IMG/VR virus record: IMGVR_UViG_3300032116_000129
Source: an uncultured virus (IMG/VR IMGVR_UViG_3300032116_000129)
Lineage: Duplodnaviria > Heunggongvirae > Uroviricota > Caudoviricetes
Length of the DNA: 64,000 nucleotides
Strand: one strand, 5' to 3'
The translations under genes and the position numbers were made by a program. Below, one piece after another: positions 50,979-62,386 of the stretch (position 1 is its first letter; every line of letters starts with the position of its first letter). The notes below the pieces were generated by a model. It was given only the letters and a program-made list of their open reading frames with translations, had not been told where the DNA came from and did not search any database.

Positions 50979-51581
50979 TTATTTTATATCAGTTAATATA
51001 TCAGTTATAATACGACTTACTCGATCGTATTTTGAATTGCTAGCTAATTTTGGATCTACTGACTCGTGCATAGGCTTTAAAAACGCTCCATGAGTTGATG
51101 GATTTGACACAAAGTCAAATGCAACTAACTCAAAGTCGTCTTGCACCTCAACAGTATTTTCACCTAACTGCTTAACAGAGCCTAATCCACGAGAACTAAT
51201 ACCTAATTTAATTCCACACTTGAAAAGCTCTTTTAAAATATTTCCTGAAGGAGTTGATAACACTTCTACAGTGCCAACTAAATCGTCTCCATTCCAATGC
51301 ATCTCTACAATATTGTGTGACACGTTGTTTAAGTTAACAATAGAAGAATCTGGATGATCTAATTCTCCTAACGCTCTGCGCTCTCGTATATTTACATCGC
51401 TGTATTTTTTCGCTTCGCGCATTAAAATTTCTCTAGGATATACTCGGCCATTTTGATTTTTAGCTTCGGCTCTTTGAAGTACTCCTTTAACTAATAAACG
51501 TCCGTTATTTTTCTCCATTGACTCTGCAATCATATCTGGAGTAGCGGAAAATACTATAGTGTCTACTAATAATTGTTTCAT
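50979..51581 (-). CDS. Prohead core protease (T4 gp21-like)
   Basis: NQNGRVYP, ALGELDHP, VSH, TPSGNI, GISSRGLGS, DFVSNPS. Confidence 0.93.
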   Translation of the reverse strand: MKQLLVDTIVFSATPDMIAESMEKNNGRLLVKGVLQRAEAKNQNGRVYPREILMREAKKYSDVNIRERRALGELDHPDSSIVNLNNVSHNIVEMHWNGDDLVGTVEVLSTPSGNILKELFKCGIKLGISSRGLGSVKQLGENTVEVQDDFELVAFDFVSNPSTHGAFLKPMHESVDPKLASNSKYDRVSRIITDILTDIK

Positions 51582-52066
51582 GATGCTAATTCTTTAATTT
51601 GTTGTGAAAGACGTAATAATCGTTCATTAATTTTGTTTAAATTTTCTCGAGACGATTTCCAGTACATGGAATTGTCTACATTAGACTCTTGCTTTAATCG
51701 TACGTTGTTGCTAACTATTTTTTCCATAAAACGCAAACCACGATTAATCTCTGCAATAGAATGATTAATTTTTGCCTTTGGAGATCCTGAAGGATCTTTC
51801 TTATATTCATGATAAGCACTTTCTAGAAACATTTCAGAAGACAGTTTCTTAAAAGTTGACTCTTTCACATTCTTTTTTACTTTCTTTGCTTTTTTATAAC
51901 CTAGCATTTCAATAGTATCGTTGCCTAACTCACCAAAAGCGTTAGGAGTTAAATACGGGCCGGCTCCTGCTGAAGTAGACATTTCGTCTAATTCTTCCTC
52001 TTGAGGTTCAGAATCCGCAGACTCGTTTAATAAACGATATTTACGTAATGAATTTAAGTATGACAT
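51578..52066 (-). CDS. Putative prohead core protein with several L-x-E sites
   Basis: LLNES, LDEM, FLES; between portal and protease. Confidence 0.65.
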   Translation of the reverse strand: MSYLNSLRKYRLLNESADSEPQEEELDEMSTSAGAGPYLTPNAFGELGNDTIEMLGYKKAKKVKKNVKESTFKKLSSEMFLESAYHEYKKDPSGSPKAKINHSIAEINRGLRFMEKIVSNNVRLKQESNVDNSMYWKSSRENLNKINERLLRLSQQIKELAS

Positions 52067-52067
52067 A

Positions 52068-52355
52068 TTATCTGTATAATAAATAAATTGATCCTGCTGT
52101 TACGCTATACACTCCTACTTCATGTACAGCAGCGGGCGCATTTGCATTAATTGCTGGTACTGTAAACGAACCTCCTCCTGTTAATGTTACAGTTGCCGCA
52201 GCGGATCCGGATTGATAAAATCCTATTGAGTTTGCATACGATCCAGTAGCTATAAAAGGTGCAGTTACTAGCTCTGAACGATTAAATTTAGCTATGTTTT
52301 GATGATATGTAGTAGCAGGTGCGCTATAAGGACCTGAAATTGGATTGGCTGCCAT
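52068..52355 (-). CDS. Small beta-rich protein, possibly virion structural
   Basis: 95-aa ORF with tight spacing in the head operon. Confidence 0.6.
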   Translation of the reverse strand: MAANPISGPYSAPATTYHQNIAKFNRSELVTAPFIATGSYANSIGFYQSGSAAATVTLTGGGSFTVPAINANAPAAVHEVGVYSVTAGSIYLLYR

Positions 52356-52358
52356 ATA

Positions 52359-53207
52359 TTATACTTTTTTAAGTTCTTTTACTAATTCGTGATAACGTAA
52401 CAAAGAAATTATATGACCATCTTTAACCGTTTTAGATTCTGAAATAGTCTTTAATAAATTAGTTACTTCAGCTATTTTAATTTTTACAACCTTATCAGTT
52501 ATTTTAGCTGCTAACTCTTTTAATTCTTTACGCAATAAAGTTACTTCTTTAAGAATAAACTCTTTTAATTCTACATTTTCAGTTACTGAATTAATATATT
52601 CTTTTAGCAATCTTTTTTGACCAGAATTTAATCCTGAATATTTTTCGTTAAACTTGTCTACTAATATTTTATATGATAATAAACGTACATCTTTGTCTTG
52701 TTTAACAAAAGCTGACATCTCATTAATAGCAGCAGGTTTTGCAGCTGTTGATTTATGAGTTATATGCTCTATTAAAGTATAACGAGAATTAACTAAATCA
52801 ACAGGATTATCTGCTACAGTAAACTCAAATAATTTATATACAGAAGCTAACACTTTGTAATTAGTTACTTTAGCTTTAAAGAATTCTTCCAATACATAAG
52901 TGTCTTTAATCTCTTTAATTAAATTGTATTTTTGACGCTTTAAAGCAGCTTGATTTAATTTATTTTTAGCTTCGACGATTGCAGTTATTAAATGATCTGC
53001 TTTATCTTCTCTAGCAAATTTTTCTTTTACTAGAGACTGATATAAGTTTAATTCTTTAGCTAACTCAGTAGATTTAGAAAAATACTTTTTCAATATTGGT
53101 AAAGCTTTGGAGTCTGTGTTGTTCATCGTGTCCGACGCTACTTGCCTTACTAACAACTCAAATAATACTCCTGTATTTTTGTATTTTGAATGCTTTAACG
53201 GTTTCAT
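52359..53207 (-). CDS. Head-module protein, putative prohead core
   Basis: KHSKYKNTGVLFELLVRQ...; helical and basic; directly after the portal. Confidence 0.65.
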   Translation of the reverse strand: MKPLKHSKYKNTGVLFELLVRQVASDTMNNTDSKALPILKKYFSKSTELAKELNLYQSLVKEKFAREDKADHLITAIVEAKNKLNQAALKRQKYNLIKEIKDTYVLEEFFKAKVTNYKVLASVYKLFEFTVADNPVDLVNSRYTLIEHITHKSTAAKPAAINEMSAFVKQDKDVRLLSYKILVDKFNEKYSGLNSGQKRLLKEYINSVTENVELKEFILKEVTLLRKELKELAAKITDKVVKIKIAEVTNLLKTISESKTVKDGHIISLLRYHELVKELKKV

Positions 53208-53227
53208 TATGTATTTATTTCTTTAAT

Positions 53228-53236
53228 AATAAATAT
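53228..53236 (-). promoter_or_regulatory. Putative late promoter ATATTTATT
   Basis: About 20 nt upstream of ATG 53207. Confidence 0.6.
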
Positions 53237-53251
53237 GTAAAATATGATCTT

Positions 53252-55126
53252 TTAAATTTCTTCTGATAACAAATTATTTTCGTCTAACATGCTCTCGGTT
53301 TTAGGAGATTCTAATAGAACTTTTGAATTTACTTTAACCTTTAACTTAGATAACGAATATTGTTTTTTAAGTGTTTCTGGATCAATGCCTTCTTTAAATC
53401 GCTTTGCTGAATTATGATAGTCACGGCTTCCTAGCGGATCCCATCCTCGAGGATGATCATGAGACTTATACTTCATTACTTCTTTAGGTCGACCGGCACC
53501 GGGCCACCCTCCTTCAGGAGCTTCGGCACGATTTTTACCTTGCTCGTCATATTGTTTTTGAAGTTTTAAATCAACTCCTTCAAATGGATTGCCGCCGCCT
53601 GCTTCTCCTTCAGCTCCACCTGCTTCTCCTTCTTTACCGCCTTCCTCTTCTTTCTTTTGATTTTTAGGATCGGCTGGGTCTTCACCTTCGTCTTCAATCT
53701 TCTTCAATCTCCATCCGTCTTTTGCACTTTGAATCATTTCTTTTTCAATATCTTCAATATCAGCTTCTTGCAAATTGAATATATTTTTATAAATCCAATG
53801 TCTAGGCATTAATTTCTTTTCAATCATATCACCTGCAAGAGTTACTTTAGTAGCGTATAAAGCTAACTTCTCTTGCTCGTAAATTACTGAAGGAGAAGTC
53901 ATCGATAAATCAAAACTAATTAAGTCTGCATTTTCAAAGCCTTGCGCGTATAAATGCACAATAGCAATTTTATGTAATTCAGATAATACAATACGCTGAA
54001 CTCTTTCAATAGTGCGAGCAAAACGAACGTCTTCAGCTGCTAGCGTAGCTTTACCTGATAATCCTTCTTCGTATCCTAAAAATGCTTTAGGTACTTTCAA
54101 CGAAGCCATCATTTTATTACGAAGATATTCAATATCATCGATGCCGGTAAATTCCATACCACTTAACGTGTCAATTTCAGTGCCAGACTGTCCTCCACGT
54201 ACAGGAAGGAAATAATCTTCTAACATGTTCTGTAAATTGAATTTTAAATTGTATTCTCCAGTTTGTTGATCAACATATGGAGTCTTCTTCATTTGATTAA
54301 TGATACGCTGCATGTAAGCGTCAACCTCGTTAGGTGGAATGTTTCCTACGTCAATTTTAAAAATACGTTTTTCGGGGGCACGCATAATACGATGAATCAA
54401 CATAGCGTCTTCCATCATAGTTAATTGTTTCCATACTTTACGAGCTCCTTCTACAATAGATTTACCGTACGGAAGAAAATTAGAATCTGATAGCAAACGA
54501 AAATGAGCTAATTCAAAATTTTCATAAAACACATCTCCTGCTCCTAACTGCTTGAAGCGTACTGAATAAGGATTACTAAGATCAGTTCCTTCTTCACGTA
54601 TAATTTCGTATGCAGATAATGGCGTAACGTTTACAATTCCAATTTCTTCTTGTATATCTAGTTTTAAATACATATCGCCATATTTGCACATATTACGTAC
54701 CCATGGCCATAAATTAAATTCAACGTTTAAAACGTCATAAAATAAGTTATGAAGTATTTTTTTAATGTTTTCGTTGTCTGATCTAATAGTTAATACATCC
54801 CCGAAGTCATCTTTCATTACAGTTTCATCAGCATATATATCTAATGTAGACGCAATAATTGGATCTTGATCCATTATTTCGTAGTCTGTATACAATTCCG
54901 TTTTAGATGAAAAGTAATTGTAATTAGGATTATAAGTATTTAAAGCGTGTGGACGAACCCCATGTAATCTAGTAAAACGATCTATAAAACGAGAGTTGTG
55001 AACGTTACCTGCAGATTGAATGTGGTTGTTATCTATAACACGCAGTTTATCTTTACCTACGCGACGAATAACGACATTAGTGTTAAATAATTTTTTTAAA
55101 CGTCCGTATATGGAAGTATCAGCCAT
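53252..55126 (-). CDS. Portal protein (T4 gp20-like)
   Basis: MMEDAMLIHRIMRAPEKRIFKIDVGNIP, MLEDYFLPVRGG..GTEIDTL, DDIEYL..K...SLKVPK. Confidence 0.95.
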   Translation of the reverse strand: MADTSIYGRLKKLFNTNVVIRRVGKDKLRVIDNNHIQSAGNVHNSRFIDRFTRLHGVRPHALNTYNPNYNYFSSKTELYTDYEIMDQDPIIASTLDIYADETVMKDDFGDVLTIRSDNENIKKILHNLFYDVLNVEFNLWPWVRNMCKYGDMYLKLDIQEEIGIVNVTPLSAYEIIREEGTDLSNPYSVRFKQLGAGDVFYENFELAHFRLLSDSNFLPYGKSIVEGARKVWKQLTMMEDAMLIHRIMRAPEKRIFKIDVGNIPPNEVDAYMQRIINQMKKTPYVDQQTGEYNLKFNLQNMLEDYFLPVRGGQSGTEIDTLSGMEFTGIDDIEYLRNKMMASLKVPKAFLGYEEGLSGKATLAAEDVRFARTIERVQRIVLSELHKIAIVHLYAQGFENADLISFDLSMTSPSVIYEQEKLALYATKVTLAGDMIEKKLMPRHWIYKNIFNLQEADIEDIEKEMIQSAKDGWRLKKIEDEGEDPADPKNQKKEEEGGKEGEAGGAEGEAGGGNPFEGVDLKLQKQYDEQGKNRAEAPEGGWPGAGRPKEVMKYKSHDHPRGWDPLGSRDYHNSAKRFKEGIDPETLKKQYSLSKLKVKVNSKVLLESPKTESMLDENNLLSEEI

Positions 55127-55143
55127 AAATTTCTACAATTTAA

Positions 55144-55152
55144 AATAAATAT
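55144..55152 (-). promoter_or_regulatory. Putative late promoter ATATTTATT
   Basis: About 17 nt upstream of portal ATG 55126. Confidence 0.6.
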
Positions 55153-55158
55153 CGAAAT

Positions 55159-56739
55159 TTATAATAACCAAGTTAAATCTTCATCTTGGTTGTTAGCAGT
55201 AGGCATTGTCCAGCCAGTTCCTTTAAGATTGCCTGAGTTAGAATTATACATTAAAGTTTGATTGCCTAAATAATCTAAAGTTTTACGATTTAAATCTAAT
55301 CCTTGCTGACGAAGCTTTAATGCTGTGTCTCGTATCCATAAACCTGTGCAAAACGACATTACTAAATCGTCATTATATCCATGTTGTGCTTCAGCTCTAG
55401 ATCCATTCCAAATAAACACAAACAATTCATCCATTAATCGACGACTGCGAATAACTGGCACTCGCTCTCTCATGTAAGTGTCTAATTTAGATATAACAAG
55501 AGGTCGTGTACGAGACGACATTGTAAATCCAGGAGTCATTTGTGAAGTGTCTTTTAAATCTACATATCTTGCTAATTGTTGAGATACATCAGACACCCCT
55601 CCATCTTTAGGAGAATAGTATAAATTTCTGTAATTTCTATCAATAGCTACTTGAATAGTAGCCCAGCCTATATTAGCATTTTCAATTACTAGTAATGCGT
55701 CATTATATTCAGTAGCTACGTTTACTAAAAGATTTCCGTAATCCTTAGTATTTATTTGACCTTTATATTCTGCAACTTGAGTAACAGTTTCTACATCAAT
55801 AACGTGAAATGCTGAATGGTCAGCACCATCACCTCGAGCAACGTCGGCTACTATTATATAATCTTTTTGATAGTCTGCAGGTTCCCAAATCCATAAATTA
55901 CTATCAATACCTCGTTTCTCTATAGGATCTTGCACTGTTGTTTGATTAAACCATTGCAATAAAGCTCCGTCAACAACGGTATGACCTGAAGATATAAAAT
56001 CACAATCACACTCTTGAGCAGCTCCTTTAGGACCTAACAATTCATCTTGTTTATCTCTCCAAGATTGATTTCTATCAGGATGCACTGACCAATGCAATCG
56101 AATAGTGTTAAATCGATTAGTACCTGACTCAGCCCCTACCCATGTTTTATGAAAAAAGTTACCAGTACCGTTGGGGGTTGATAATATAATAGCACCTCCT
56201 CCAGTTGCTAGAGTTTGTTGTGCTGATATCCAAATTTCTTCTACATTAGAAATAAATGCGGCCTCGTCTATGATTAATAGTGATAACGCTTCGGAACGAC
56301 CTGAGTCGCCTGACGAAGAAGTTGCTTTAATTTGAGATCCGTTATTTAAACGAAGCGATAATTTATTATCTTCAACTGCCGGCAACTTTAACCAAGAAGG
56401 TAAATTTTCATACATCACTTTTACCTTTAACACTAAATTCTTAGCTACTTCTTGTTTAGTTGCAATAACTAATATATTTTTATCCCCAAAAAATGTCATA
56501 AGCCATAGTGCATAGCCTGCACTTAGAGTACTGATGCCTAATTGTCGTGACTTGAGAATGATGTTATAATCGTGATCTCGAAGGTCTCTGAGGGCCGACT
56601 CCTGAAACGGGTAAAGATGAAATGGTATTTTACCTTTTTGTGGGTGTTGTATTTGACAATACTTTTTCATAAAGTGCACAGGATCCTGTAAACACTTTTT
56701 GTATTCTTCACGAATAATATCTTTTAATGACTGTGACAT
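55159..56739 (-). CDS. Terminase large subunit (T4 gp17-like)
   Basis: LYPFQ, KSRQLGIST (Walker A), LIIDEAAF (Walker B), STPNG, QECDCDF, ADVARGDGADHS, HGYNDDLVM. Confidence 0.95.
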   Translation of the reverse strand: MSQSLKDIIREEYKKCLQDPVHFMKKYCQIQHPQKGKIPFHLYPFQESALRDLRDHDYNIILKSRQLGISTLSAGYALWLMTFFGDKNILVIATKQEVAKNLVLKVKVMYENLPSWLKLPAVEDNKLSLRLNNGSQIKATSSSGDSGRSEALSLLIIDEAAFISNVEEIWISAQQTLATGGGAIILSTPNGTGNFFHKTWVGAESGTNRFNTIRLHWSVHPDRNQSWRDKQDELLGPKGAAQECDCDFISSGHTVVDGALLQWFNQTTVQDPIEKRGIDSNLWIWEPADYQKDYIIVADVARGDGADHSAFHVIDVETVTQVAEYKGQINTKDYGNLLVNVATEYNDALLVIENANIGWATIQVAIDRNYRNLYYSPKDGGVSDVSQQLARYVDLKDTSQMTPGFTMSSRTRPLVISKLDTYMRERVPVIRSRRLMDELFVFIWNGSRAEAQHGYNDDLVMSFCTGLWIRDTALKLRQQGLDLNRKTLDYLGNQTLMYNSNSGNLKGTGWTMPTANNQDEDLTWLL

Positions 56740-57055: not shown

Positions 57056-57559
57056 TTATTTTTTATCTTTTATCGGACCGCCAGTTACCCAAGCGTCGCA
57101 AGTACGAGATCCAGCACACTTAAATTTAAGAAATGTGCAATATCCTAACTTTCCGGCTTCTATAGTATCCCAAGCGTCTTTTTCTGCTCCTTCAGTATCG
57201 TCTAATTCTGGTTCAGTTACTGGAGCGTCTTGCTCTTGCATTTCAGGTTCGGTGACTGGCACTTCTTCTTCGCCAGACGTAATACCTTTTTCAATACAAC
57301 TAAGCATTCTAGAAGTAATGTTAAACGCTGCACAATTATTACAACGAGACGACTTAGCTTCTTCCATAGAATCTAGTTGCCACTCTTCTGCTTTCTTTTT
57401 CCAAAATTTAATGTTTGGATTGTTTGGGTTTAAAGGGCCATAGCCGTATTCATCAATAGCTTTTTGACGATGTTCAAGATTAACAGAAATGTCCTGCGTT
57501 GCCACAGGACACTTCATTTCTTCTTCAGCTTCTTTTAATAAATTAGCTAATTTAATCAT
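57056..57559 (-). CDS. Cys-rich HiPIP-like protein with MIKLANLLKEA leader
   Basis: RCNNCAAF...GYCTFLKFKCAGSRTCDAW. Confidence 0.65.
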   Translation of the reverse strand: MIKLANLLKEAEEEMKCPVATQDISVNLEHRQKAIDEYGYGPLNPNNPNIKFWKKKAEEWQLDSMEEAKSSRCNNCAAFNITSRMLSCIEKGITSGEEEVPVTEPEMQEQDAPVTEPELDDTEGAEKDAWDTIEAGKLGYCTFLKFKCAGSRTCDAWVTGGPIKDKK

Positions 57560-57560
57560 A

Positions 57561-58499
57561 TTACTTAACTTTGATTATTGATTCTTTTAACATAGAGTCC
57601 ATACGTTTATTTACTGACTCTTGTTTAAATGGAGGCATATAATTAAGCTCACCCGTCTTAGCAATATTTTGCCAATTTTTAGCGTCATCTGTCTGAGGCA
57701 TTACGTCTCTTTTAGGAGCTCCGTCAACTGGCGTTGAAGTTTTTTGCATTTGTTGTACATTAGCCCAAATGTAATTAGCTGCTTGCTCTAAATTAGTTCC
57801 ACTTAAATTATCAGCGTCTTTGTTACTGTTAACTTTAACGACACCAGCTTTAACAAAAACTTTCATTACGTCTTTAGTAATAGTTTTTCTTACGTACTCT
57901 TTTAAATCAGCCTCAGAGATAGTAATTAAGTTTTTAGATCCTTTTGCAGTAGCCGTTGGCACTTTACCAATATCAGCAGCTATAGCTAATTGCGTTACCT
58001 TTAAAAAATCAACAGGTTTAGACACGGCTTTTGAATCCATATCAGTTACTGCAATAGAAGCTTCTTTATTCATTGCATATAACTGAGACCATCTATGATG
58101 ACCGTCGATAACGTATTGACCTTTAGCAGTTACTATACGTTTACCCGCAATTGCAACGGTTCCTCCTTTTAAGCATTGCATTGCAGATTTTGGGTTTGTT
58201 AATGGAAAACTTAACGATTTATCTAAGGCAATTTCATTTTGAGTAGGCCTTAAATCTTGCACAGCAATAGCAGTATCTTTTAACGAGATAATTTCATCGG
58301 CAGGCTGACCATCTTCTTTACCTTTATTTAATAAAGCCTGAATTTTTGTATCTTGTGCATTAGAGCCTAATTGAGCTACAAATTTTTCATACGAACCTGC
58401 AGTTACGGTAGCCTTTAAATCTTCAGCTTCGTCTTCTTTAAGAAGTCCAGCTAATTTTTGCAATCTAGCAGCTTCAACAATTAAATTATTTTTTTTCAT
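57561..58499 (-). CDS. ParB/sulfiredoxin-like domain protein with RLQKLAGLLKED leader
   Basis: LRPTQNEI...IVTAKGQYVIDGHHRW. Confidence 0.72.
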   Translation of the reverse strand: MKKNNLIVEAARLQKLAGLLKEDEAEDLKATVTAGSYEKFVAQLGSNAQDTKIQALLNKGKEDGQPADEIISLKDTAIAVQDLRPTQNEIALDKSLSFPLTNPKSAMQCLKGGTVAIAGKRIVTAKGQYVIDGHHRWSQLYAMNKEASIAVTDMDSKAVSKPVDFLKVTQLAIAADIGKVPTATAKGSKNLITISEADLKEYVRKTITKDVMKVFVKAGVVKVNSNKDADNLSGTNLEQAANYIWANVQQMQKTSTPVDGAPKRDVMPQTDDAKNWQNIAKTGELNYMPPFKQESVNKRMDSMLKESIIKVK

Positions 58500-58517: not shown

Positions 58518-58784
58518 TTACCATGCTCTACAACTCCAATAACGTGCTTTCCATCTTGGGCCTGGGTTGTCACAATTATGACGAGCTCGAAAAGATTTTC
58601 TTCTTTCAGGATTGTTCTTTTTAATTTTCATTCCTGGTTCTCCAAATCCTACTTTAACTACATTGCCTTTGTCATTGGTAACGTAAACAGCACGCTTTCT
58701 AGGACCTCCAGGAGTATAAAAAGGCTTACCTAATTTTACTTTACGGCCTCTGTATTCAGCTTCTTTTATTTTTTCCTCTGAAAC
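58518..58784 (-). CDS. Start-less frame encoding an 88-aa basic domain, in the -1 frame of 58766..59173
   Basis: VSEEKIKEAEYRGRKVKLGKPFYTPGGPRKRAVYVTNDKGNVVKVGFGEPGMKIKKNNPERRKSFRARHNCDNPGPRWKARYWSCRAW*; entry at the A9G run 58784-58793; missed by the ORF track. Confidence 0.75.
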   Translation of the reverse strand, partial: VSEEKIKEAEYRGRKVKLGKPFYTPGGPRKRAVYVTNDKGNVVKVGFGEPGMKIKKNNPERRKSFRARHNCDNPGPRWKARYWSCRAW

Positions 58785-59173
58785 TTTTTTTTTGATTCCA
58801 TGTAAAGTTCGGTAGGCGACTCTTTAGGCATTTTTTGCTTTTTATCGTAGTCACCCATTTTAATTCCTTTTTGTTGAGACTTTTCTCCAAATGCCATAGT
58901 CTCTAAATCTTTTTCCTCTGGCATTTCGGCTACTTCCTCATTCTCAAACCAACCAGCTCTCATAGCAGCTTTATTCATAGCCTGAGCTACGTCATCTTGA
59001 TCTTCATCAGGAAACTTTTCAAAAGCTAGCTCGTAGAAGTCGTCCCATTCATCTTCATCAACGAGTTTTTCTAGCTTCTTTTTGTTTTTATCAAAGAAGT
59101 CTGATATAGCATCATGAAGAGAAAGAACCTTTGGCTCTTCTGCTTCTTTTAATAAATCTTTTAATTTAATCAT
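58766..59173 (-). CDS. Acidic protein with MIKLKDLLKEA leader; frameshift donor
   Basis: Ends ...ATG GAA TCA AAA AAA AAG TTT CAG AGG AAA AAA TAA. Confidence 0.72.
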   Translation of the reverse strand: MIKLKDLLKEAEEPKVLSLHDAISDFFDKNKKKLEKLVDEDEWDDFYELAFEKFPDEDQDDVAQAMNKAAMRAGWFENEEVAEMPEEKDLETMAFGEKSQQKGIKMGDYDKKQKMPKESPTELYMESKKKFQRKK

Positions 59174-59526
59174 TTCTTTAACTTTTTTAAAGTTTCAGTA
59201 ACTACTCTACGAACTTGTTTACGTACAATATACTCTTGAATTTTATGATCTAATAAATCATAAATGTCTTCATCTGGCTCAGTAGCTAATAAACGATGAA
59301 AGTTAGCATCTGCTGCTGCTAACACTTGCTCAGCAGCTTTTAACTCTCGGTTAAGTTTAATTAACTTTGGCTTAATTCTTTCTTTTCTAGTAGGATCTGT
59401 TTCAGATAAAAAAGCTTTTTTCATTACCATGATTTGCTTTTCCAATTCCTGTTTAGTTAACATAGCATTTTGTAATGCGTCTGTTGCCTTTTTAAGTTGT
59501 CTAGATACGTTAACGTTTGGTTCCAT
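59170..59526 (-). CDS. Coiled-coil protein with a C-terminal IQE-YIVRKQVRRVVTE motif
   Basis: Coupled to both neighbours by overlapping stop/start codons. Confidence 0.65.
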   Translation of the reverse strand: MEPNVNVSRQLKKATDALQNAMLTKQELEKQIMVMKKAFLSETDPTRKERIKPKLIKLNRELKAAEQVLAAADANFHRLLATEPDEDIYDLLDHKIQEYIVRKQVRRVVTETLKKLKK

Positions 59527-59855
59527 TATTTAGATAATTTAGGTTCTGTTCTAATTTTTACAATTGCACTTTTATCATGCTTTTTAGCATAGTCAGATAC
59601 TTTTTTAGATATACCAGTAGCTGAAGGTCCGTTTAAATCGATAATTAATGTATTATCTTTTACTGCTGGTTTAAATACAATCTTTAAACTAGCGTATTTA
59701 GATTTAAAGTCAGGGGCTTTCATCATGTTATTGATTTCCTGCTCTATAGCGTCTTTTTTAGGAGATGTAATAATAACTCGTCTCCAAGCTCCTACATCTT
59801 CTTTAATTACTTTCGCTATCTCCTGGCGAATCAGCGATCTCAACTCTGTTATCAT
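59526..59855 (-). CDS. Small protein with LRSLIRQEIAKVIKED leader
   Basis: Shared leader class. Confidence 0.68.
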   Translation of the reverse strand: MITELRSLIRQEIAKVIKEDVGAWRRVIITSPKKDAIEQEINNMMKAPDFKSKYASLKIVFKPAVKDNTLIIDLNGPSATGISKKVSDYAKKHDKSAIVKIRTEPKLSK

Positions 59856-60448: not shown

Positions 60449-62386
60449 TTACTTTCTAAAACTAGTTGCCAAACCACCTAAAATAAACTTACCTGTTATT
60501 TTAAACGGTTTACTGTATATAGATTTATCTCGTATAACAATACCTTCATGCTCTGTAACTGGACCTAACGGAGAAGTTAATTTTTCTAACACTGCATCCC
60601 CTAACTTCATAGTAGCCATGTAAATAGTAAATCCATCAATCGCTAACTGATAATCTTTAGGATCTGCTACCCATTCTGATAAAGGAACTCCGTCAGCTAT
60701 TTTAATTAACACTTCTTTAGAAAGTGCACCAATGTCTTTACCTTCTTTAGTTTTAATTCTAGAGTCTTTAGGATTAGTTGCCTTTGACAATAGAGTCTTA
60801 AGAGACTTAGTTACTTTTTTGTCAGGAGTTAAATTAATTGTATACGTTTTACTTAACGCTGCATCTAAATTAGGAGTACCTTCTAGTTTAGTAGGAACTG
60901 ACCCTAACACTTCGTATCCTTGTTTACTAGCAACAGGAGTTAAGTTAATAATTAACTGCTTCATTACAGCTTTATTATAACTTTTTTCTGAAGTAGCTCT
61001 TTTAGTTGGAGTTACCTGCTTAATTTCTAATAAACCGTGAATAGCTAAAAAGTTCTTACCATAATTTAATACGTTAGTTGATCCTGCAACGTATTCAATA
61101 TTAAACATAATATTTGGATTGTCCCAAAGACCTAATTTCTTTAAGTCTGAAGTAATAGCTGGTATAGCTTCGTTAAATATGTCTAACACTTTGCCACCTA
61201 CTATAATCATTCCATGGCCAGCTCCAAATCGATCTTCTAGTTCTGCTTTGGTAATACCTTTTACATCCAATGGTTTATTGGATCCTCTATCCATTACAAA
61301 CGTCTTTCGACCGTCAATTTCTACTAACCGTATAGAAGCGTTTACGCCGTCTATTTTAACCGATGCTGCTGTCTTGGATAAGTAATCCACTGATTTGTTA
61401 AAGACGGAAATTAAGTCGGTTCCGCTAGTAACTGTAGGTATATCAAAGGGGTGCGCCATATGTCCTCCAGCTCCTCCCTCTTTTAGCAACTGCTCATACA
61501 TTGGTACTCCGTATACCGTTTTAGGAAATTGATTAAAATTATAAGCAAACTCTTTTCCTATTTGCTTACGAAGAAATGCTTTTAACTTTTCTATTTTAGC
61601 GTTATGTGCTTGAGCTTGCTCTGGAGTTGGATACCCTTCAGATACAGACTCTGGTACGCAATTAGGCACTTGCTTCTTTCCTTTCTTTTTCATTCCTACT
61701 TGTTTATAGCCGTCCCAGCAAGGGTCGCTATCTTCGTCTAGGTTTAACGACTCAGACCACCAGTCTTTAGTAAAAAGATTCATTTCAGATTTTATTTTTA
61801 GTTTGTCAAATACCAGTTTAGCAATTTCAGGATTCCATGTCCCAAAAACTCCTTTAAAAACTTTTTGCTGATTTTCAGAAGATAAGTCGCTGCTTAACAA
61901 TTTACGTAAACTTGTTCCTGACATTTCACCATACCCAGGAACGTTTAACGACACATGAGGCGCTACAAACAAGTATCCATGTTTATCGTATCCTTGTAAA
62001 TTGTTTTTATTAGCTTCGTATGGTTTGTAAAACGATTCAGATCCGTCCTTTTTAGGTTTCATAGCAAACCGAGGATCTTCTCTCATATCTTTTTCTCCTA
62101 CCATAAAAACAACAGCTGTTGTGTTAGGATCAAATTGTTGCAATATTTCTGTTGCAACGTAAGGTTGTTTAGTTAGCACAACGTCGTCTTGCAATCCATA
62201 TAACGATAAAATTTGCTTTTTATCTTTAAATGTAAACGGAGATTTAGGAAATTCTACTTTGTCACTAGTTGCTATATATGTATTAGCCTGTCCGAATTTT
62301 TTCTGAAGAGCTCGGTAAGCAGTTTCGTGGTGCTTACCAAACGGTTGAAAACGTCCAGGATAAATTGCAATTACTTTTGATATCAT
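60449..62386 (-). CDS. Multidomain protein: HIGH-superfamily nucleotidyltransferase + short CWxGY..PNCVP module + ATP-dependent ligase-like (covalent nucleotidyltransferase) domain
   Basis: N-term IYPGRFQPFGKHH, FMVGEKD, MSGTSLR; linker with LDED, VSEG, LLKEG; C-term SVKIDG, FNIEY, HEGIVIR, PFKITG. Confidence 0.7.
   Translation of the reverse strand: MISKVIAIYPGRFQPFGKHHETAYRALQKKFGQANTYIATSDKVEFPKSPFTFKDKKQILSLYGLQDDVVLTKQPYVATEILQQFDPNTTAVVFMVGEKDMREDPRFAMKPKKDGSESFYKPYEANKNNLQGYDKHGYLFVAPHVSLNVPGYGEMSGTSLRKLLSSDLSSENQQKVFKGVFGTWNPEIAKLVFDKLKIKSEMNLFTKDWWSESLNLDEDSDPCWDGYKQVGMKKKGKKQVPNCVPESVSEGYPTPEQAQAHNAKIEKLKAFLRKQIGKEFAYNFNQFPKTVYGVPMYEQLLKEGGAGGHMAHPFDIPTVTSGTDLISVFNKSVDYLSKTAASVKIDGVNASIRLVEIDGRKTFVMDRGSNKPLDVKGITKAELEDRFGAGHGMIIVGGKVLDIFNEAIPAITSDLKKLGLWDNPNIMFNIEYVAGSTNVLNYGKNFLAIHGLLEIKQVTPTKRATSEKSYNKAVMKQLIINLTPVASKQGYEVLGSVPTKLEGTPNLDAALSKTYTINLTPDKKVTKSLKTLLSKATNPKDSRIKTKEGKDIGALSKEVLIKIADGVPLSEWVADPKDYQLAIDGFTIYMATMKLGDAVLEKLTSPLGPVTEHEGIVIRDKSIYSKPFKITGKFILGGLATSFRK

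Follow-up and report, generated by a model that had tools for sequence, protein, structure and literature searches.

A conserved run of nine adenines between an acidic protein and a basic domain in T4-like phages as a probable slippage site for two isoforms

Cases of productive slippage by RNA polymerase on homopolymers are on record for RNA viruses, IS elements, and a small number of cellular genes. Excerpts of PMC5009743 and PMC1088944 describe how Thermus thermophilus dnaX yields its tau and gamma forms by slippage on a run of nine, and give nine as the length at which both slippage and counter-selection begin. A further case, tssM, is covered in part of PMC4256274: the Citrobacter rodentium gene carries an A11 run and is out of frame, that of Yersinia pseudotuberculosis an A9 run in frame, and slippage amounts to 15-25%. 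For ribosomal frameshifting, the sections of PMC5009743 used here name A_AAA_AAG as the most shift-prone lysine heptamer in Escherichia coli, and describe phage Ig-like extensions as indifferent to the direction of the frameshift or to being encoded in frame. Within the open-access titles and abstract beginnings that we searched, there was no account of the gene family presented below, of its site, or of slippage in a phage head-cargo gene. Nor do we know of any use of recoding by the internal proteins of T4.

Here, we describe a run of nine adenines (A9) that separates an acidic protein, ORF A, from a basic extension in another frame (Table 1). The window, by which we mean the whole 64-kb stretch of viral DNA that was analyzed, represents the late region of an uncultured, T4-like freshwater phage, with terminase, portal, and prohead protease at 50979-56739 and a major capsid protein that shares 59% identity with that of Microcystis phage Mel-JY01 and 58.5% with that of Flavobacterium phage immuto. 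Gene starts throughout (1641-63890), most virion genes included, are A/T-rich without an evident Shine-Dalgarno motif, which would fit a Bacteroidota host, and no tRNA genes were found in the window.

Table 1. Features at the A9 junction and in the head gene module, in window coordinates
Feature	Position	Strand	Remarks
ORF A	58766..59173	-	135 aa, acidic, pI 4.8; default short product of the window genome
10-residue leader, L-K-E at positions 8-10	59144..59173	-	resembles T4 capsid-targeting propeptide (putative)
A9 run	58785..58793	-	T9 on + strand; G follows; conserved slip site
A_AAA_AAG heptamer	58784..58790	-	zero frame; shared by all 15 junctions of the window's frame type
TAA stop, short form	58766..58768	-	6 codons after A9 run
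Start-less extension, -1 frame	58518..58784	-	88 aa from run to stop; basic; phrog_7595
I-K-E, candidate prohead-protease site ahead of basic domain	58761..58769	-	I-K-E-A in window; motif seen in sequence, function putative
T4-type prohead protease gene (Peptidase_S77)	50979..51581	-	profile matches; putative processing enzyme
Portal	53252-55126		between prohead protease gene and ORF A
Terminase	55159-56739		between prohead protease gene and ORF A

A preliminary description of this DNA had proposed that ORF A ends on an A9G run reading TCA AAA AAA AAG and that a start-less -1 frame of 88 aa, closed upstream, fills the gap to the next gene, and both observations were borne out. The -1 frame is open from 58823 down to 58518, with a stop at 58824-58826 just upstream of it, has no ATG, GTG, or TTG ahead of its conserved part, and terminates 18 nt before the ATG of the next gene. 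The only internal ATG noted in the basic domain lies at residue 49 of the 85-aa query and would yield a product of just 37 aa. With one base added to the run, the product is 218 aa long, just as in-frame orthologues such as P0128 are, while in both non-productive frames the short form ends soon after the run (6 and 9 codons in the window). The I-K-E-A sequence reported at the beginning of the extension is likewise present. ORF A itself has no match in Pfam, PHROG, or NCBIfam, its N-domain has 164 homologues in the protein collection, and leaders like its own are found on the genes that start at 57559, 18711, and 48768.

Several neighboring genes have features of their own. The adjacent gene at 57561-58499 (312 aa) begins on an A8 run, at which sequencing run X9 has a 3-base insertion, and shows a weak match to a ParB-like nuclease (PF08857, E 0.0014, below cut-off). 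Upstream of ORF A, a 118-aa gene (59170-59526) is a separate ORF in the window, and in several relatives (L001, L090, and L150), it is joined to the acidic domain as an in-frame fusion, displacing the leader. The gene at 60449-62386 encodes 645 aa with a weak cytidyltransferase match at the N-terminus (phrog_395) and, at residues 217-258, a short mobile module common to many unknown PHROG families.

An assembly error behind the A9 run, a trap to which the preliminary description had pointed, is unlikely. The Logan contig of run X1, a possible source of the window, spans 58596-59700 with 0 differences and 0 gaps, that of run X4 spans 58605-58973 with 1 difference and 0 gaps, and both carry A9; the viral contigs L081 and L082 are identical to the window, and 8 contigs, drawn from three sources, have a record of the short protein, so that we discarded this candidate. 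The X9 contig (58627-58829; 18 other letters, no gap, 91% identity, the letters themselves not being visible) apparently carries the same frame break in a relative, as judged from a contig that reaches only 36 letters beyond the run. The closest relative among the run contigs compared, X11, has one extra base, which places the gene in frame with nine A's still present. The comparison used contigs of DNA runs, and as contigs drop rare variants, minority alleles are hidden in it; the RNA-labeled runs X18-X20 contributed small shares (6-8% of words).

We found the run to be conserved across the gene family. Searches with the acidic domain returned 154 loci, many of them repeats, which reduced to 52 distinct junctions; four loci that stop short of the domain (L085, L106, L107, and L147) were left out of the junction count, while L094, which has a zero-frame stop, no run, and a damaged look, was kept in the count and left out of the tree. 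In 35 junctions, the two parts are in frame, 15 need one added nucleotide, one needs the loss of a nucleotide (L166/L181), and L094 is aberrant. At least nine A's (9-11) are present in 49 of the 52 junctions, with the longest run being exactly nine in 41, and this holds in all three frames: the in-frame junctions carry A9 in 28 cases, A10 in 6, and no such run in 1, those needing an added nucleotide A9 in 13, A8 in 1, and A11 in 1, and L166/L181, a single DNA haplotype, A10. The upstream DNA of these junctions has a median identity of 70% and falls into 23 clusters at 85%, 22 of which contain the run. As the run occurs in differing codon contexts (AAA AAA AAA G, A AAA AAA AAG, and A AAA AAA AAC), it is kept as nucleotides. 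Conservation of the heptamer together with the frame break, which the preliminary description had put forward as a check, thus held for the run and failed for the heptamer, since a zero-frame A_AAA_AAG is found in all 15 junctions that need an added nucleotide, in just 4 of the 35 in-frame junctions, and in none (0/1) of the opposite type. Judging by this pattern, the conserved unit is the homopolymer and not the heptamer, and A9 stands as a genuine slip site that its gene family has retained.

The same description had taken in-frame homologues as grounds for rejecting recoding. Such homologues do make up 35 of the 52 junctions, yet 34 of these 35 retain at least nine A's, which points to slippage of the polymerase, an alternative named there as well. 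It also bears on a further reading, in which there is no program at all and a fused gene has a Lys-Lys-Lys linker that breaks by recurrent homopolymer mutation or assembly error, with leaky rescue at most. This reading accounts for the in-frame state of most orthologues and of the X11 relative, and for the number of A8G sequences in the window, where 1 was seen against 4.58 expected from shuffles, i.e., not above chance. The significance of the site lies in its conservation and in the way such runs are otherwise avoided genome-wide. One silent change to AAG would be enough to abolish the risk of slipping, as it does at an earlier Lys triplet of the gene, and the persistence of the run in 34 of 35 in-frame genes argues against a lack of program, as do the two runs kept by genes with an inserted module, the 48 short forms among the 120 listed protein clusters, and the agreement of several independent assemblies on A9. 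Run conservation in in-frame genes already largely refutes this reading, which we regard as very improbable.

Controls indicated that runs of A are avoided elsewhere. The coding strands of the window hold four A-runs of at least eight, two of which begin genes and one of which is intergenic, leaving the junction as the only gene-internal one and as the sole gene-internal run of nine in the 64 kb. All other lysine triplets in the window avoid AAA-AAA-AAA (0/9, at 77% AAA use), as do nearly all in related loci (2/75 with it, at 83% AAA use), and the N-K-K-K-L-E motif earlier in the ORF A family gene is written AAA AAG AAA in 19 of 35 cases and with three AAA in 2. Upon searching for DNA that encodes the same peptide pattern, at least nine A's were found in 3 of 105 unrelated versus 13 of 14 related sequences among the matches listed. 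Two runs of at least nine occur in the 132 kb of G003, both within the ORF A orthologue, and three in the complete 181.6-kb G002, where only that of the junction is gene-internal. The rows are related, and nominal P values therefore overstate the case, but other lysine codons of the gene do show turnover at their silent positions.

The preliminary description had interpreted the site as a programmed -1 ribosomal frameshift on A_AAA_AAG. What stood of this proposal is a real, selected recoding site that joins an acidic, leader-bearing protein to a basic domain; what fell is a dedicated -1 frameshift as the general mechanism, given the 35 in-frame junctions, the alleles of opposite type, and the absence of a hairpin. 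We consider it unlikely that such a frameshift produces most of the long form in the window genome and other out-of-frame lineages. The zero-frame heptamer is present in each of the 15 junctions of the window's type, as the base behind the run is G in 48 of 50 junctions, and it arises automatically when an A9G run changes phase. The heptamer needs merely A8G with three lysine codons, but the preceding base is A in 13 of these 15, and 31 of the 35 in-frame junctions lack a zero-frame A_AAA_AAG, yet 34 keep at least nine A's. Moreover, the L166/L181 haplotype and 7 of the 48 short proteins (those with tails of the +1-nt kind, as judged by the residue after KKK) need the opposite shift and are irreparable by -1, and the -1 relation of the frames is not conserved among the 52 orthologous junctions. 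No hairpin was detected in the 79 nt downstream of the run in the window (z +1.14; -8.7 kcal/mol, a fold matched by 172 of 200 shuffles), and the nine junctions inspected by eye have no upstream Shine-Dalgarno-like motif in common. Nonetheless, the near-constant G, the fact that 15 of 16 out-of-frame alleles are of the type repaired by a -1 ribosomal shift, and the stop directly after the lysine run in 12 of the 48 listed short proteins speak for some contribution of the ribosome and count against slippage of the polymerase alone, leaving room for a ribosomal share. Against polymerase slippage there are also lineages in which the run is dispensable (L117, P0019, and P0032) and the out-of-frame allele L123, which has A8 only.

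The frame state has changed repeatedly. On a tree of 44 rows, built with the junction left out of the alignment and L094 dropped, at least seven changes are needed, each of them imposed by branches with support. Differences in frame are found between near-identical genomes (P0001/P0002/P0125; window/X11/P0128/P0004), all three states occur within the lineage of the window (P0122, P0128, and P0004; P0001, P0002, and P0125), and sister pairs combine A10 in frame with A9 out of frame (L121/L120 and L133/L140). These observations are also predicted by a hypermutable DNA switch, in which replication slippage would turn the basic domain on and off with about one form per genome, and to that extent count against slippage at the RNA level; Campylobacter phages, as the title of one paper reportedly has it, do use hypermutable tracts. 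We nevertheless think such phase variation improbable. Run lengths cluster tightly at nine, with 13 of the 15 out-of-frame alleles keeping exactly nine, and some frame changes lie beside a run that stays at nine (L111 with A9-C-G versus L118 with A9-G). The commonest in-frame allele is TCT-A9 (13 cases), from which a switch would generate A8 off alleles by plain loss of one A, and no T-A8-G was seen among the 15 junctions that need an added nucleotide, an absence that refers to junctions read as DNA, records such as P0001 being of protein only, with the Ser codon hidden.

Bearing further on this point is a clade in which all seven haplotypes are out of frame, although the run itself has undergone a substitution among them. 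Two of its members, L102 and L123, have different bases ahead of the run; between them, the domain shows 6 silent changes and 2 of the K/R kind (P=0.0016 if evolution were neutral), and the region upstream of the run 14 silent and 5 replacement changes. Hence, by this count of substitutions, the domain is under purifying selection in a clade where it would always be off, which argues against a silent off state. The comparison of L102 with L103, with 13 silent and 2 replacement changes in the domain and 1 change upstream, suggests recombination, which would be able to refresh a silent domain, and weighs less.

Short proteins without the domain account for 48 of the 120 listed (of 164), and all 48 end at most 14 residues from KK[KN]. 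I/L-x-E precedes the domain in 49 of the 52 junctions and V-x-E in 1, with no such motif found in 2. Some relatives contain an extra helical module (L177/L178, L332, L336, L343 [G003:C1:92741, 92982], P0052, P0085, and P0104) and have two A9-A10 runs, one ahead of each added module; four junctions with an inserted module hold two runs, and short proteins of this type terminate at the second. Up to three products per gene are possible in these cases. In an X4 contig, a 299-letter module is inserted between the run and the basic domain (at window 58765-58815), and L131, L133, L135, and L140 have extra modules in that place, with the insert in L131/L133/L140 resembling a short Cys-Trp module that also occurs in the 645-aa gene.

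The basic domain (last 81 aa) has a pI of 10.7, a small beta+alpha fold, and invariant H-x-C and W-x-C. It matches PHROG 7595 (phrog_7595) at 5.9e-12, occurring in 26 phage records, and that of the window protein has no match in Pfam, NCBIfam, or the PDB. The likeness to DUF5754 and DUF6321 suggested in the preliminary description survived in part: DUF5754 (PF19058) is a weak, family-level resemblance, with 17 of 27 aligned relatives, and not the window protein, matching at E<=1 (best 0.00087), and DUF6321 was absent among the profile matches of the window protein and its aligned relatives. An AlphaFold model of the domain (pLDDT 83) gave a best Z of 3.7 among 48,161 PDB representatives, with a best sequence E of 0.18, a comparison that on the model indicates neither a known nor a new fold; matches in BFVD were uncharacterized phage proteins, two of them labeled XkdF and ChaB, and those in the ESM Atlas were unnamed clusters of 41-46 aa only. 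Our best guess, from charge alone, is that the domain may bind nucleic acid.

No relatives were found in contigs of prokaryote genomes. Among the best 80 viral loci with the domain, 79 are other genes in which the frame that encodes it is open and has a start upstream, and L001 alone is a true orthologue, without a start for the domain. None of the 79 non-orthologous genes has at least nine A's within 150 nt upstream of the domain, so the domain does not need the run. In the cultured relative immuto_2-6A, another gene encodes the domain in frame, its longest A run being 6, so that this phage cannot test the site. The domain (window 58521-58775) is also present in pelagiphages, in roseophages (labeled HVA1 family), in Melnitz and immuto, and in two spindle-shaped viruses of Nitrosopumilaceae, spanning very different virion types. 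As candidates for independent expression, we rejected an own start of the domain, for which the window offers an ATA that overlaps the stop, and some relatives an ATT or ATC, with no codon shared and none of seven candidate codons in L120, as well as the internal Met, which would drop the conserved N-terminal half, itself showing a silent-site excess.

Both frame types could in principle also be served by the ribosome sliding on consecutive AAA codons, in either direction, to give trans-frame products. As reported in the portion of PMC4363877 drawn on here, E. coli ribosomes slide in several frames on AAA runs in vitro, which explains the avoidance of AAA codons there; in the same account, sliding is slow relative to normal elongation and is seen under forced pausing. 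The relative G003, whose record is 70% complete, has an array of 21 tRNAs for most amino acids (G003:C1:39200-42300; L360) in which tRNA-Lys was not found, a gap that would favor sliding. Apart from the array, G003 has one more tRNA-Glu, and two weak Rfam matches that were not called by ARAGORN. The run is, however, kept at nine even in phases with only two whole AAA codons, and we hold sliding to be quite improbable as the source of the products.

We therefore return to slippage of RNA polymerase, which we regard as the probable, if far from certain, basis of a programmed site that would yield two isoforms in a ratio that flips between lineages. The locus shares the sequence features of programmed transcriptional slippage: a run of at least nine within a coding sequence, its retention against avoidance, and early stops in the other frames. 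On the nine A's, the RNA:DNA hybrid of the host RNA polymerase would realign, adding or dropping an A, and a mixed pool of mRNAs would result. In the window genome, most mRNAs would be translated into the 135-aa acidic protein, and those with an additional A into the 218-aa form with the basic domain, while about two thirds of the relatives have an in-frame gene, for which the long form would be the default and slippage would yield the short one. The sub-stoichiometric dose of the domain that the preliminary description had envisaged thus fits the out-of-frame third of the family and not the rest. Selection would hold the run at 9-10 A's and tolerate any frame, so that lineages could flip the short:long ratio, and a -1 shift of the ribosome on the A_AAA_AAG of out-of-frame alleles may add to the yield. 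Slippage is presumably transcriptional, with both forms made; nothing above chance was detected for an internal promoter or terminator at the run, and no Rfam match at the site. The rules applied here come from E. coli, Thermus, and enterobacteria and may not be those of the host. The readings weighed in this work range from probable (polymerase slippage) through unlikely (a -1 ribosomal shift; DNA-level switching) and quite improbable (ribosome sliding) to very improbable (no program), and the mechanisms may act together.

As for its role, ORF A likely serves as an acidic carrier that would be packaged and take the small basic domain along into the head, where the domain would be cut free. 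The sequence has the hallmarks of a processed internal protein of the T4 type, with a leader containing L/I-x-E, a prohead protease, and L/I-x-E before the module; the agreement of leader and I/L-x-E with T4 rules hints at such processing, the motifs being short and common. The leader would load both forms into the prohead, the protease would free the basic domain at I/L-x-E, and the short:long ratio would thereby set the number of domain copies packed. More tentatively, it is possible that the A9 tract acts as a modular dosing valve for capsid cargo in the T4-like phages of this group, such that any domain placed behind it is packed at a set fraction, stacked tracts give three forms, and one-base changes flip between mostly with and mostly without the domain, neither form being lost, which would couple a ratio set at the RNA level to an evolutionary switch in the DNA, perhaps tuned to the host strain.

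The family constitutes a natural experiment, with dozens of alleles in three frames around one conserved A9, and this allele set could separate polymerase slippage, ribosomal frameshifting, and DNA switching. It also matters for annotation: about 40% of the listed protein clusters (48/120) bear the annotation of truncated proteins, and the start of the domain is wrongly placed at its internal Met, so that gene callers lose the domain.

By analogy, the mode of action would be like that of Thermus dnaX and tssM. As with E. coli dnaX and the IS elements, the window genome carries the A_AAA_AAG heptamer, and, as with the capsid extensions of phages T3, T7, and A2, an optional C-terminal domain extends a head-region protein (both comparisons drawing on parts of PMC5009743); unlike the E. 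coli cases, no stimulators were found at the window site, and it is the homopolymer of nine, and not the zero-frame heptamer, that is conserved. The T4 internal proteins, in the excerpt of PMC9026906 consulted, resemble ORF A in a 10-residue leader that ends in L-x-E at positions 8-10 and gp21-type cleavage, and also in I/L-x-E before a small basic domain and a prohead protease in the same module, whereas no sequence family link was found, and packaging and cleavage are here putative. In the extracts available, Thermus dnaX has a run of nine in an in-frame gene, nearby stops in both other frames, and an optional C-terminal domain, which matches the in-frame majority of the phage family, with the difference that it encodes a cellular replicase with a measured 1:1 ratio. 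The polarity and mechanism of dnaX differ, on the same partial accounts, between distant bacteria, whereas the phage frame differs between close relatives. In tssM, as far as the part of the source used here describes it, a poly-A run likewise leads to a short and a long structural protein, and homologues differ in their default form; for tssM, experiments established both how the slippage works and that the ratio is needed, and the site is rare among tssM genes, whereas in the phages, where it is known from sequence, it is found in nearly the whole family with at least seven flips. New here is that the family has flipped repeatedly between all three frames while the length of the run has stayed at nine.
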